Part shown: positions 12,895 to 14,902 of the stretch, piece by piece
Numbering within the stretch: position 1 is the stretch's first letter
Layout: the number at the start of each line of letters is the position of its first letter
Sequence record: MK524176.1
From: Escherichia phage PHB11
Strand: one strand, 5' to 3'
DNA: 64,000 bases
Notes under the pieces: model-generated
Seen by the model: the letters and a program-made list of their open reading frames with translations, nothing else
Databases searched by the model: none
Told to the model about the DNA's origin: nothing
Position numbers and translations under genes: made by a program

Positions 12895-12968
12895 GCACCT
12901 ATAGCCCAATTGGTAGAGGCAGCAGACTTAGAATCTGCTCAGTGTGAGTTCGAATCTCTCTAGGTGTA
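12895..12968 (+). tRNA. tRNA with anticodon TAG (Leu-type anticodon; no long variable arm in manual fold)
   Basis: Acceptor GCACCTA/TAGGTGT, stem GCAGA/TCTGC, loop CTTAGAA, T-loop TTCGAAT, A73, CCA encoded; 74 nt. Confidence 0.55.
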
Positions 12969-12978
12969 CCAAATTAAT

Positions 12979-13051
12979 GCAGGTGTAGCAAAATGGTTAT
13001 GCGGCTGACTCTTAATCAGTAAGACGATGGGTTCAATTCCCTCCACCTGTA
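12979..13051 (+). tRNA. tRNA-Lys (anticodon CTT)
   Basis: Acceptor GCAGGTG/CACCTGT, loop CTCTTAA, T-loop TTCAATT, CCA encoded. Confidence 0.6.
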
Positions 13052-13060
13052 CCAAATATT

Positions 13061-13133
13061 GGGGATGTAGTTTACATGGTTAAAACATAAGTTTTGCAAA
13101 CTTAAGTACAGGGTTCAATTCCCTGCTTCTCCA
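13061..13133 (+). tRNA. tRNA-Ala (anticodon TGC)
   Basis: Acceptor GGGGATG/CTTCTCC with G3:U70 wobble (Ala identity pair), stem TAAGT/ACTTA, loop TTTGCAA, T-arm CAGGG-TTCAATT-CCCTG, CCA encoded. Confidence 0.7.
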
Positions 13134-13142
13134 CCAATTAGT

Positions 13143-13214
13143 GCATCCATAGTTTAAACGGGAAAATTACAGTCTTCCAAACTGAGGTTGAGGGTTCGAT
13201 TCCCTCTGGATGCT
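13143..13214 (+). tRNA. tRNA-Gly (anticodon TCC)
   Basis: Acceptor GCATCCA/TGGATGC, loop CTTCCAA, T-arm GAGGG-TTCGATT-CCCTC, CCA encoded. Confidence 0.65.
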
Positions 13215-13231
13215 CCAAATTAAGGTGTGAT

Positions 13232-13645
13232 ATGAAAATATGTAGTACTTGCAGAATACCAAAAGATGAAAGCTTATTCCATAAGAATAAGAACAAGAAA
13301 GATGGTCTTCAAAGTCAATGCAAAGACTGTGCAAGACTTCGTGATGCAAAGAGTTATCAAGCAAATGATAAAAGGAAAGAGGCTATCAAAAGCACTCGTA
13401 ACTTCAAGAGGGAGTATAATAAAACTCTAACTAGAAGGTACAAAGCTTTATGCAAATGTCATATATGTGGTGAGAAAGAACCAGTTGCACTGGATTTACA
13501 CCATACAGACCCTTCCCAGAAAGATTTGAATCCTGCATCACTTTATTCATACTCCACAAAAAGATTAAAAGATGAAATCAGAAAGTGTATTGTCTTGTGT
13601 GCTAACTGTCACAGAAAAGTACACGCTGGTATCATAAAAGTTTAA
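13232..13645 (+). CDS. HNH endonuclease (homing endonuclease-like) inside the tRNA array
   Basis: 137-aa ORF with Cys clusters and HH..(N)..CANCH motif (LDLHHTDPSQKD ... VLCANCHRKVH); GGTG RBS. Confidence 0.7.
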   Translation: MKICSTCRIPKDESLFHKNKNKKDGLQSQCKDCARLRDAKSYQANDKRKEAIKSTRNFKREYNKTLTRRYKALCKCHICGEKEPVALDLHHTDPSQKDLNPASLYSYSTKRLKDEIRKCIVLCANCHRKVHAGIIKV

Positions 13646-13646
13646 T

Positions 13647-13720
13647 GCTGCTTTCGTATAATTGGCTATTACACATCCCTTGTAAGGATGGAGATGCGGG
13701 TTCAAGTCCTGTGAGCAGCA
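13647..13720 (+). tRNA. tRNA-Thr (anticodon TGT)
   Basis: Acceptor GCTGCTT/GAGCAGC, stem CATCC/GGATG, loop CTTGTAA, T-loop TTCAAGT, CCA encoded. Confidence 0.65.
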
Positions 13721-13819
13721 CCAATTCAGAGGTCAAGTGAAAGACCGCTTTGAGTCAACTGAAGACCGTAACAAATCCCACGGAGTTGAGTTAGCGGCAC
13801 AACTTCAGACCTCTTTCAT

Positions 13820-13891
13820 ACTCGCTTAGTTTATATGGTAAAACATCACCCTTACAAGATGGAGAAAAAGGTTCAAGTCCTTTAGTGAGTA
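13820..13891 (+). tRNA. tRNA-Val (anticodon TAC)
   Basis: Acceptor ACTCGCT/AGTGAGT, D-arm GTTT-ATATGGTA-AAAC, loop CTTACAA, T-arm AAAGG-TTCAAGT-CCTTT, CCA encoded. Confidence 0.6.
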
Positions 13892-13895
13892 CCAT

Positions 13896-13970
13896 GTTCC
13901 AGTATCCCAATTGGCAGAGGATGCAAGCTCAAACCTTGTATTAGTGACGGTTCGAATCCGTCTTGGAACA
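13896..13970 (+). tRNA. tRNA with anticodon CAA (Leu-type anticodon; no long variable arm in manual fold)
   Basis: Acceptor GTTCCAG/TTGGAAC, stem GCAAG/CTTGT, loop CTCAAAC, T-arm GACGG-TTCGAAT-CCGTC, A73, CCA encoded. Confidence 0.55.
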
Positions 13971-14087
13971 CCAATTTTAGGAGAACACTATGAGTGATAA
14001 GTCAATTGCAAAAAAGTTTATAGCGTCATTCAAAAACAGGCGTAAAAACAAAGATTGTGAAACACTGTATGGTGTTCTTGTAGGTAA

Positions 14088-14160
14088 GCAGGATTAGTTC
14101 AAATGGATAGAGCAACAGTCTACGAAGCTGTTAATAGGGGTTCGAATCCCTTATCCTGCG
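14088..14160 (+). tRNA. tRNA-Arg (anticodon ACG)
   Basis: Acceptor GCAGGAT/ATCCTGC, stem ACAGT/GCTGT, loop CTACGAA, T-loop TTCGAAT, CCA encoded. Confidence 0.65.
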
Positions 14161-14182
14161 CCAATTTAAAGAGGCTATTTAA

Positions 14183-14740
14183 ATGAGATATTTGAAGTAT
14201 GCTTCATGGATTTTCCTAGCTTTGTTAGACCCATTGGCAGCAATCTTAGCAGTTATCTTAGCACCTTTCGTAGTTCCATTTTACAGTGAGAAGAAAGGAC
14301 ACTTACCTTTCGGATTTAGATGGATGGAAACTTATGACAACCCAATTGACGGTGATGAAGGTCATGTCAAACGATGGGCTAAGATTAGAAAGATTGGTAA
14401 GCTTGGTATCTATATGCAGAGAGTCGGTTGGCTCTGGAGAAACAAAGCTTATAACTTCTCCTACCATGTGTTAGGAAGAGATGTAAAAGATGTTACTAAG
14501 TGGAAAGGTAATATCAACGTAAGTTCTGACCCTGAAGATAATCAGACAGGTTATCTCTTAATGTGGAACAGTAATGCTTGGGGATTATTCGCTTTTATCC
14601 CATCAATTAAAGTCTTTGGTAAACAATTCTACTGGAGAATTTATGTTGGATGGAAACTTAAAAGTGTTGTCCCAGAAGAAAGAGCATTCTCAAGGGAAAG
14701 AGTTATGTTGACATTCTTTATTCATCCACTAAGAAAGTAA
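14183..14740 (+). CDS. Hypothetical membrane protein encoded inside the tRNA array
   Basis: 185-aa ORF, AAGAGG RBS, N-terminal hydrophobic segment IFLALLDPLAAILAVILAPFVVPF. Confidence 0.6.
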   Translation: MRYLKYASWIFLALLDPLAAILAVILAPFVVPFYSEKKGHLPFGFRWMETYDNPIDGDEGHVKRWAKIRKIGKLGIYMQRVGWLWRNKAYNFSYHVLGRDVKDVTKWKGNINVSSDPEDNQTGYLLMWNSNAWGLFAFIPSIKVFGKQFYWRIYVGWKLKSVVPEERAFSRERVMLTFFIHPLRK

Positions 14741-14748
14741 AGATTTAA

Positions 14749-14821
14749 AGGGGATTAGTTTACAAGGTTAAAACCTCGGTCTTTGAAATCGAAGAAGTTG
14801 GTTCAATTCCAACATCCCCCG
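14749..14821 (+). tRNA. tRNA-Gln (anticodon TTG)
   Basis: Acceptor AGGGGAT/ATCCCCC (1:72 mismatch), D-arm GTTT-ACAAGGTTA-AAAC, stem TCGGT/ATCGA, loop CTTTGAA, T-arm GTTGG-TTCAATT-CCAAC, CCA encoded. Confidence 0.6.
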
Positions 14822-14826
14822 CCAAT

Positions 14827-14902
14827 GCTCCATTACTCCAATTGGCAGAGAGGCCAGACTTAAAATCTGTGTTATGTATCGGTTCGAATCCGATATGGAG
14901 TA
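14827..14902 (+). tRNA. tRNA with anticodon TAA (Leu-type anticodon; no long variable arm in manual fold)
   Basis: Acceptor GCTCCAT/ATGGAGT, loop CTTAAAA, T-arm ATCGG-TTCGAAT-CCGAT, A73, CCA encoded; anticodon stem has one mismatch. Confidence 0.5.

Follow-up and report, generated by a model that had tools for sequence, protein, structure and literature searches.

Short-arm leucine tRNAs encoded by a Felix O1-like Escherichia phage and found in other phage tRNA arrays

The leucine tRNAs of Escherichia coli are type II molecules of 85-87 nt with a variable region of 11-15 nt, and all six K-12 tRNA-Leu that we examined were of this type. The long arm is not among the elements by which leucyl-tRNA synthetase (LeuRS) selects its substrates: leucine identity in E. 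coli consists of A73, A15-U48, G18G19, A20a and tertiary pairs that join the D-loop to the T-loop (PMC9976931), a set to which A14 was added in the introduction of a study of Streptomyces coelicolor (PMC6614811). Minimal tRNA-Leu without the arm stay active, whereas for tRNA-Ser the size of the arm is the major determinant, and engineered arm-less E. coli tRNA-Leu remain substrates for both aminoacylation and editing (studies of Asahara, Larkin and Tocchini-Valentini, reviewed in PMC9976931). Natural type I tRNA-Leu, with no long arm, are known from mitochondria and from Streptomyces. Here we describe three natural tRNA-Leu genes with short variable regions (anticodons UAG, CAA and UAA) in a 64,000-nucleotide stretch of the genome of Escherichia phage PHB11 (MK524176.1; hereafter the window, meaning this whole stretch). 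The phage is a Felix O1-like member of the genus Felixounavirus (Ounavirinae), and 'tRNA-Leu (x3)' is already annotated in public records of Felix O1-like phages.

The closest described counterpart is the type I tRNA-Leu(CAA) of S. coelicolor, whose variable loop is 5 nt long, as is that of Leu(UAG) in the window (ACAGC there, TCAGT here). In that system five nucleotides was the shortest variable loop with relatively high charging, the U8-A14 pair was important for charging, and A73 did not serve as an identity element (PMC6614811). The S. coelicolor gene is chromosomal, the leucine-specific domain of its LeuRS is linked to type I charging, and a type II tRNA-Leu is also present in the cell (PMC6614811), whereas the window tRNAs are phage-borne, carry U48 and belong to a phage of hosts with an E. 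coli-type LeuRS. Animal mitochondrial tRNA-Leu(UUR) is likewise type I, with identity resting on A73 and A14 and no long arm (PMC9976931), but it is organellar, with a dedicated LeuRS in the mitochondrion and an anticodon arm of loose structure. Among phages, T4 and T5 encode tRNA-Leu (reading UUA and CUA, respectively) that share the D-loop motif and A73 of the window tRNAs and lie in clusters interspersed with homing endonucleases. Theirs, in contrast, are long-armed, at 87 nt in T4 and 85 nt in T5 with variable regions of 11-15 nt, and the prominence of these long-armed models may explain why the short form was overlooked. For T5, the annotation of the record mentions tRNAs whose anticodons were replaced in order to test amber suppression. 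An earlier description of phages, coliphages especially, commonly encoding short-arm tRNA-Leu was not found in the searchable literature, outside which most subscription journals lie.

Structure and leucine identity of the three tRNAs

ARAGORN and the Rfam tRNA model (RF00005) both recovered the three genes (Table 1), with ends, sizes of 74-76 nt and anticodons (TAG, CAA and TAA) identical to those that an earlier note on this DNA had proposed from manual folds. The RF00005 matches at 12895-12968, 13896-13970 and 14827-14902 were full-length (model positions 1-71 of 71), with E-values of 3.6e-11, 4.4e-07 and 5e-08 in the 6.5 kb searched, and all scored above the gathering score of 29 bits; including the encoded CCA, ARAGORN gave lengths of 77, 78 and 79 nt. 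Each tRNA had a 7-bp acceptor stem, 5-bp anticodon and T stems, a 7-nt anticodon loop (CUUAGAA in Leu(UAG), CUCAAAC in Leu(CAA) and CUUAAAA in Leu(UAA)) with U33, a T-loop of the form TTCRANY (TTCGAAT in all three), and A73 followed by CCA. In the ARAGORN bracket structures the variable regions were TCAGT (TAG), ATTAGT (CAA) and GTTATGT (TAA). A type II tRNA has a variable region of at least 10 nt forming a stem-loop; at 5, 6 and 7 nt, those of the window leave no room for an extra stem. All 20 stem pairs of Leu(CAA) were canonical, Leu(TAG) had a single U50:U64 mismatch in its T-stem, and in Leu(UAA) the uppermost pair of the anticodon stem was a single mismatch, C27:U43.

Folding in ViennaRNA, which uses no tRNA model, gave no extra arm in any of the three; Leu(TAG) folded as a cloverleaf and Leu(CAA) lacked only the D-stem. 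A long arm hidden in an alternative fold is ruled out by the length of 74-76 nt, and ARAGORN, Infernal and ViennaRNA produced none. The two tRNA-Ser and the tRNA-Tyr of the same array served as internal controls and had the long arms that the earlier note had reported for them (Table 1). Its reading of the leucine tRNAs as type I folds with variable loops of 5-7 nt and A73 also held, as neither ARAGORN nor the covariance model altered an anticodon loop or added an extended variable arm. With regard to modification, Leu(UAG) has A37 where the host tRNA-Leu(UAG) has G37, and formation of m1G37 by TrmD is impossible on A37. With C38, Leu(CAA) lacks an intact A36-A37-A38, a motif that has been described as determining i6A37-dependent methylation by TrmL.

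The three tRNAs shared a 3-bp D-stem, an 11-nt D-loop CAATTGG(T/C)AGA, U8, A14, A15 with U48, G18G19, A20a and A73. The D-loop of Leu(UAG) was CAATTGGTAGA within the D-arm GCCCAATTGGTAGAGGC, and the D-arms of Leu(CAA) and Leu(UAA) were TCCCAATTGGCAGAGGA and CTCCAATTGGCAGAGAG. E. coli tRNA-Leu has the same A73, A14, A15:U48, G18G19, A20a, 3-bp D-stem and 11-nt D-loop, the loop reading GAATTGGTAGA; that of T4 tRNA-Leu is AAATTGGTAAA. At the sequence level, all the nucleotides by which E. coli LeuRS would recognise a leucine tRNA are in place in the three tRNAs, and the absence of both G3:U70 and a long arm excludes alanine and serine identity at the same level. A strict form of the D-arm motif (3-bp stem with an 11-nt loop NAAYYGGYANA) was carried by 24/34 Leu and 1/195 non-Leu tRNAs in a first set of 229, by 12/37 Leu and 0/477 non-Leu tRNAs in a generic viral sample, and by 101/118 Leu and 0/226 non-Leu tRNAs at bacterial loci. 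At viral loci selected for tRNA-Leu (IMG/VR L017-L382) it occurred in 378 of 527 Leu tRNAs and in 44 of 2546 others, mostly tRNA-His(gtg) and tRNA-Gln, which may be anticodon-shifted derivatives of short tRNA-Leu or may have converged on the motif. Judged by these counts, the motif appears almost exclusive to leucine. A73 and U48 were both present in 34/34 Leu tRNAs of the first set, whether long or short.

Published scores for a relative point in the same direction. Shigella phage Sf14 is Moogle-like and has the same 26-tRNA set, for which isotype scores from tRNAscan-SE 2.0 have been tabulated; Leu scored highest for Leu_TAG (67.4), Leu_CAA (49.1) and Leu_TAA (60.2), these scores being those of the genes of Sf14 and not of the window (PMC12482277). 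That study noted differences in the anticodon loops, not the arm, and the word 'variable' occurs nowhere in its main text (PMC12482277). In the other Moogle-like Shigella phages Sf13, Sf17, Sf18 and Sf19, the Leu genes were 98.7-100% identical to those of the window. An anticodon-blind hidden Markov model (HMM) of 233 long-arm Leu bodies, with arm and anticodon removed, was used to rank the 26 window tRNAs and partly supported leucine identity, placing Leu(tag) first and Leu(taa) second. The earlier note had left a choice between short-arm Leu tRNAs and tRNAs of another identity; the Leu-type D-arm, the LeuRS identity nucleotides and the isotype scores of the relative favour the former. It is scarcely credible that the genes combine leucine anticodons with another amino-acid identity, so that UUR and CUA codons are recoded or mistranslated. 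Type I size would suit such a reading, the runner-up isotypes for Sf14 Leu(TAG) were close (Ile2 65.7 and Lys 63.4 against 67.4 for Leu; PMC12482277), and the crude HMM scored tRNA-Lys and tRNA-Glu above the window Leu(CAA). However, Leu was the top model for all three Sf14 counterparts, the D-arm motif is nearly confined to leucine, the alanine and serine elements are missing, anticodon-reading aminoacyl-tRNA synthetases (aaRSs) would, by established identity rules, not accept UAG, CAA or UAA, and UUA, UUG and CUA were present at ordinary Leu frequencies in the open reading frames (ORFs) of the window.

The three genes thus probably encode functional type I leucine tRNAs, which host LeuRS would charge although the arm is missing. 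As members of the phage tRNA array they would be transcribed with it, their CCA pre-encoded. The scaffold read by an E. coli-type LeuRS is kept (A73, U8-A14, A15:U48, G18G19, the D-arm geometry and a canonical T-loop), and only the long variable arm, an identity element of seryl-tRNA synthetase and not of LeuRS, is absent. Host LeuRS would charge these tRNAs with leucine, and they would then decode UUA, UUG and CUA, and possibly further CUN codons, supplying UUA/UUG/CUA decoding to an AT-rich phage. About half of E. coli leucines are encoded by CTG and about 4% by CTA. In window ORFs (39.1% GC), TTA made up 26.8%, CTT 27.2% and CTA 11.9% of Leu codons, and TTA and CTA were significantly enriched over the host in the Sf14 study (PMC12482277).

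Several observations weigh against this interpretation. In the one biochemical study of a bacterial type I tRNA-Leu, E. coli LeuRS failed to charge a transcript of the S. coelicolor tRNA-Leu(CAA) in vitro, and it has been stated that the enzyme 'only charges type II tRNALeu', its leucine-specific domain favouring a large variable region (PMC6614811). CTT was the commonest Leu codon in the window and the array had no dedicated tRNA with a GAG or AAG anticodon. Leu(CAA) reached only 5th place of 26 in the HMM, below tRNA-Lys and tRNA-Glu. In ViennaRNA, the minimum free energy (MFE) structure of Leu(UAA) was an alternative fold and not the cloverleaf, and fold stability relative to shuffled sequences was weak (z = -0.5 to -1.8). 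Weak z-scores of this kind are usual for single AT-rich tRNAs. As regards charging, position 48 is C in the S. coelicolor tRNA-Leu(CAA) and U in all three window Leu tRNAs, so that in the latter the A15:U48 pair of E. coli leucine identity can form. Since short Leu tRNAs occur in several independent families of phages infecting Escherichia, Salmonella, Cronobacter and Erwinia, enterobacterial LeuRS is likely to accept them. We infer that the window tRNAs are aminoacylated by enterobacterial LeuRS and used in translation.

Short-arm tRNA-Leu in other phages and in bacteria

Each of the three Leu genes was compared with 50,697 phage records. Leu(TAG) aligned colinearly, with no room for an arm, with annotated tRNA-Leu of unrelated phages. 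Running ARAGORN on nine phage loci identified three short tRNA-Leu in each of Mycobacterium phage Cali, Erwinia phage phiEa21-4 and Aeromonas phage AhP_Mru1 (T5 family), two in each of Cronobacter phage CR3, Pseudomonas phage 16Q and the crAss-like phage cr111_1, one short and one long in Enterococcus phage EFDG1 and in Streptomyces phage Yaboi, and one short and two long in Rhodococcus phage Trina. All tRNA-Ser and tRNA-Tyr of these nine loci were long. Among other enterobacterial phages, short Leu tRNAs were found in CR3, phiEa21-4 and SP15, and matches to annotated tRNA-Leu in KaOmega and F5M1E.

In IMG/VR, the D-arm type of the window (class A, see below) was combined with short spacing and a T-loop in at least 120 stretches and with long spacing in 8, and a host-like D-arm was found with short spacing in at least 120 stretches and with long spacing in at least 120; as three of the four counts are lower bounds, this cross of D-arm class and arm length is only partly informative. 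Among the matches listed, the variable region of Leu tRNAs at those loci was bimodal, with 291 at 4-8 nt and 236 at 9-20 nt. The 291 short tRNAs listed comprised 261 distinct sequences, with A73 in 289 and U48 in 288. In a less biased sample, made up of loci chosen by a generic non-Leu D-arm, 10 of 37 tRNA-Leu were short (27%, 95% confidence interval 14-44%). Short-arm tRNA-Leu is therefore common in phage tRNA arrays. Only leucine tRNAs lose the arm in this way: at the IMG/VR loci, tRNA-Ser was long in 171 of 175 cases and tRNA-Tyr in 78 of 85, a pattern that matches synthetase identity rules. The exceptions were four tRNA-Ser (4/175, viral) and seven tRNA-Tyr (7/85) that appear short; in the generic sample 3/14 tRNA-Tyr appear short.

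At least two sequence classes of short tRNA-Leu could be recognised. Class A, which includes the three of the window, had A9, C12:G23, C13 and a variable loop that was often NCAGT, with a D-arm of NCCCAAYTGGYAGAGGN; host tRNA-Leu, in contrast, has G9, G12:C23 and R13. A second class, comprising the three Aeromonas tRNAs, SP15 and an allele of Felix O1, had G9 and G13 as in long-arm tRNA-Leu. Overall, G9 was present in 225/236 long-arm Leu tRNAs and A9 in 174/291 short ones, and class-A short tRNAs had switched to C:G in place of G:C at 12:23 and to C in place of R at position 13. These differences suggest that the tertiary core is remodelled when the arm is absent.

We also scanned bacteria, with one genome per species, for the class-A short pattern. 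Among the matches listed, most were from Actinomycetota (Nocardia, Gordonia, Mycobacterium, Rhodococcus, Amycolatopsis, Corynebacterium and Bifidobacterium), and ARAGORN on the bacterial loci listed identified at least 116 short tRNA-Leu, 115 of them with A73. In 89 of the 118 bacterial loci listed there was no other tRNA within 8 kb, and the neighbours in five loci were housekeeping genes (pyruvate kinase, DNA polymerase I, an ANTAR response regulator, a POT transporter and Ppx/GppA). Short-arm tRNA-Leu in bacteria is much more widespread than the single S. coelicolor case in the literature, and the possibility that the form is restricted to phages is ruled out by these mostly solitary bacterial genes. 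The earlier note had called the window tRNAs unusual, which is right relative to textbook bacterial tRNA-Leu and to the host, but not relative to phage arrays, where they are common, or to Actinomycetota, where they are native chromosomal genes. The anticodons of the bacterial short tRNA-Leu were taa, caa, tag, cag and gag, and some of the genes were from Planctomycetota and other metagenome-assembled genomes (L496-L615; example loci L522:2724-2798, L556:5224-5300 and L500:2370-2445). The pyk and polA genes adjoined the tRNA in Bifidobacterium, and the POT transporter and Ppx/GppA genes in Nocardia.

The window D-arms (GCCCAATTGGTAGAGGC, TCCCAATTGGCAGAGGA and CTCCAATTGGCAGAGAG) were the same as, or one base different from, the commonest D-arms of the 116 bacterial short Leu tRNAs listed, and that of Leu(CAA), TCCCAAYTGGCAGAGGA, was typical of actinobacterial tRNA-Leu(CAA). 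Compared without the arm, the window Leu tRNAs were 65-82% identical to the class-A short tRNAs of other phages and 38-64% identical to E. coli tRNA-Leu. A common origin of all class-A genes is plausible from these sequence comparisons, and the source of the window genes would be a pre-existing short-arm type (A9, C12:G23, C13 and a variable loop often NCAGU), as opposed to a recent trimming of host tRNA-Leu. A caution here is that other isotypes reached 48-76% identity across the same distant phages and that the loci had been picked by similarity to Leu(TAG). A single origin of all short-arm phage Leu tRNAs is unsupported, given these control isotypes and the presence of at least two sequence classes.

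It is very improbable that an E. coli or Salmonella tRNA-Leu was recently captured and then had its arm deleted in the Felix O1 lineage. The D-loop is indeed nearly that of the host (CAATTGGYAGA against GAATTGGTAGA), and the tRNAs of Aeromonas Mru1, SP15 and Felix O1 allele B have the host-like G9 and G13 and resemble the long T5 type, so loss of the arm from host-like bodies seems to occur elsewhere. However, the window tRNAs are closer to class-A short tRNAs than to E. coli tRNA-Leu, share A9, C12:G23 and C13 with the Actinomycetota genes, and include a Leu(CAA) D-arm of actinobacterial type. Moreover, the window Leu(TAG) had no blastn match (E <= 0.01) in 5,426 complete E. coli genomes, a search of 28 Gb with a 77-nt query that excludes only copies above roughly 80-85% identity on chromosomes, prophages and plasmids.

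Conservation and allele turnover

Of the 263 phage records that matched Leu(UAA), 215 did so at 99% identity or more; Leu(CAA) was at least 99% identical in 159 records and 95-99% identical in 89 more, and the window allele of Leu(TAG) was at least 95% identical in 91. Across the roughly 250 genomes in which Leu(CAA) and Leu(UAA) are near 100% identical, the array as a whole differs by 3-6%. Erwinia phage phiEa21-4 belongs to another genus of the Ounavirinae, and compared with its orthologues 7 of 20 stem pairs in Leu(CAA) were double-compensated with none broken, as were 13 of 20 in Leu(UAA), with at most one pair non-canonical. Over all comparisons with relatives there were 4-13 double compensatory stem changes and at most two non-canonical pairs. 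This combination of near-invariance and compensatory change points to selection on the Leu tRNAs.

We also considered whether these could be relic genes, or RNAs with no role in translation such as decoys, processing signals or pseudogenes, that enterobacterial LeuRS leaves uncharged. E. coli LeuRS did leave a natural type I tRNA-Leu uncharged in vitro (PMC6614811), there is a U:U mismatch in the T-stem of Leu(TAG) and a C:U mismatch in the anticodon stem of Leu(UAA), support from MFE folding is weak, and the T5-like homologue in Yersinia phage phiR2-01 is annotated as 'tRNA-Pseudo-TAG'. Set against this, the LeuRS identity nucleotides, T-loop and encoded CCA are all conserved, the stems change by compensatory doubles, identity is near 100% over hundreds of genomes whose arrays differ by 3-6%, and the anticodons match codons enriched in the phage. 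Relics or non-translational RNAs are thus quite unlikely, and functional leucine tRNAs remain the preferred reading.

At the Leu(TAG) slot, Felix O1 carried a different short-arm tRNA-Leu(TAG) (L616:3576-3653). The gene differed between the window and Felix O1 at 37 of 78 positions, whereas the flanks differed at 2 of 100 and 1 of 84, with the break at the gene boundaries; the change at this slot is a cassette-like replacement. A third allele, in phage Alf5 (L617:401-478), had nine differences from that of Felix O1, namely one D-stem base and eight that replaced the anticodon stem (TCTCG/CGAGA in Felix O1, CCATC/GTTGG with one U:U in Alf5). The loop CTTAGAA was identical and the adjoining tRNA-Lys differed by one base, suggesting that recombination or diversifying selection has been concentrated on the anticodon stem. 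All three alleles were short-armed, and the window, Felix O1 and Alf5 types were found in about 91, 73 and 91 records, respectively, by BLAST identity bands. In T5, the slot after tRNA-Ala holds a long Leu(UAG) of 85 nt (record 31624-31708, L012) followed by the HNH endonuclease gene hegC, whereas SP15 has a short Leu(UAG) of 77 nt (L618:497-573) and no hegC at the same slot, in flanks that align with those of T5 at 88-90%.

Phage tRNAs that differ from the host's in body or loops while keeping the anticodon include the nuclease-resistant tRNA-Tyr of T5 (against Retron-Eco7) and tRNA-Lys of T5 (against PARIS). Resistance of these two was shown experimentally; for tRNA-Leu, no cognate nuclease is known. 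Loss of the arm could in the same way be an anti-defence trait, by which phage type I tRNA-Leu escape nucleases acting on the long arm or on type II features of the host tRNA body, and this would be compatible with charging by host LeuRS. The tRNA-Tyr of E. coli is cleaved in its variable arm by Retron-Eco7 and Septu PtuAB, and a distinctive variable loop reportedly makes T5 tRNA-Tyr resistant (PMC13096335, PMC11555353); VapC52 cuts the variable loop of tRNA-Ser. Allele replacement at the Leu(TAG) slot and the anticodon-stem swap, both within flanks of about 99% identity, are expected under diversifying selection on the tRNA body, and long and short Leu(UAG) alternate at one slot between T5 and SP15. 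However, the literature searched yielded no defence system directed at the arm of tRNA-Leu. The site at which Retron-Kva2 cleaves tRNA-Leu is the anticodon loop and not the arm, the bacterial Schlafen RorSlfn5 acts on the anticodon stem, no specificity for type II tRNAs having been shown, the stable chromosomal short-arm tRNA-Leu of Actinomycetota indicate that the architecture needs no arms race, and Leu(CAA) and Leu(UAA) are nearly invariant. On balance, it is doubtful that the short-arm tRNA-Leu of coliphages and Salmonella phages act as a counter-defence device through arm loss and swaps of the Leu(TAG) body and anticodon stem. If they did, the nucleases concerned would be a bacterial counterpart of the cleavage of type II tRNAs by mammalian SLFN11 and of tRNA-Tyr arms by PtuAB, and natural type I tRNA-Leu would be substrates of enterobacterial LeuRS in vivo, which goes against the published type II-only statement.

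The tRNA array and the significance of short-arm tRNA-Leu

The array was 94.5-97% identical to those of Felix O1-like phages of Salmonella, Escherichia, Shigella and Citrobacter (Table 1). The earlier note had seen no tRNA-Trp, and none was found by ARAGORN or by a permissive Rfam scan of 10000-16500, which gave, besides one partial tRNA-like match, only spurious matches to microRNAs and plastid untranslated regions on the antisense strands of tRNAs. Window ORFs contained 201 TGG codons although the array has no tRNA-Trp, and the related Erwinia phage phiEa21-4 has one (L007:5282-5357). This weak, partial RF00005 match, in the gap between tRNA-Asp and tRNA-Lys (11386-11436; model positions 7-64, 22 bits, E = 0.51), is possibly what is left of a tRNA gene.

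A promoter scan of the array gave 15 hits compared with 15.5 in shuffled sequences, and as this was no better than the shuffles, we assigned no transcription units from the promoter and terminator scans. Directly upstream of Leu(TAG), at 12795-12895, there was a small hairpin followed by a run of T (AAGACCTATTTAGGTCTTTTT) and a long imperfect inverted repeat (…AGAGGGCTTCTAAGG…CTTAGAAGTTCTCT…), to which Rfam gave a spurious microRNA-like match of 27 bits; Felix O1 and Alf5 have the stretch conserved. Directly upstream, the array is preceded by an ORF (8935-10350) that matched DUF2828/DUF7788 (E = 1.7e-28 and 1.3e-43) and whose annotation in Felix O1 is 'RNA-binding protein'. In Streptomyces phage Yaboi, a 'Ro-like RNA binding protein' adjoins the tRNA array (L006:637-2262), and a link of the DUF2828/DUF7788 ORF to tRNA handling is possible. 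No aaRS was found among the five ORFs between 8.9 and 18.1 kb to which that search was limited.

Table 1. Features of the tRNA array of Escherichia phage PHB11 and its surroundings, in window coordinates
Feature	Position	Strand	Basis	Remarks
tRNA array	10515..16100	+ (all)	ARAGORN, Rfam	26 tRNA genes for 19 amino acids (no Trp), small ORFs between
tRNA-Tyr(GUA)	11014..11101	+	ARAGORN	Long variable arm, 88 nt; internal control
tRNA-Ser(UGA)	12550..12639	+	ARAGORN	Long variable arm, 90 nt; internal control
tRNA-Leu(UAG)	12895..12971	+	ARAGORN, Rfam 58.9 bits	Short-arm (type I), 74 nt + CCA
Cys-rich protein	13232-13645		HNH match below threshold, 17.4 bits (cut-off 21.4)	'HNH endonuclease' in Felix O1
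tRNA-Leu(CAA)	13896..13973	+	ARAGORN, Rfam 44.0 bits	Short-arm, 75 nt + CCA
DUF7338 protein	14183-14740			Within array
tRNA-Leu(UAA)	14827..14905	+	ARAGORN, Rfam 47.5 bits	Short-arm, 76 nt + CCA
DUF7217 protein	15129-15926			Within array
tRNA-Ser(GCU)	15928..16020	+	ARAGORN	Long variable arm, 93 nt; internal control
Large terminase subunit	16532-18148			After array

Bacterial tRNA-Leu is regarded in textbooks, and in the one biochemical paper on the matter, as nearly always long-armed. Through Felix O1-, T5- and CR3-like phages, E. coli, Salmonella and related hosts receive short-arm tRNA-Leu of natural origin, a ready experiment on whether aminoacylation, editing, modification and ribosome use can do without the arm in vivo. 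Their presence challenges the published generalisation that E. coli LeuRS is restricted to type II tRNAs, a challenge that is directly testable. That leucine tRNAs lose the arm, tRNA-Ser almost never and tRNA-Tyr rarely, gives a simple evolutionary reading of the synthetase identity rules. For annotation pipelines and identity predictors, a long arm should be no requirement for phage tRNA-Leu, and the design of orthogonal or compact tRNA-Leu scaffolds gains hundreds of natural sequences. Should arm loss or the swapping of Leu(TAG) alleles prove to be driven by defence, the emerging conflict between phage tRNAs and tRNA nucleases would extend to a new isotype and a new structural element.

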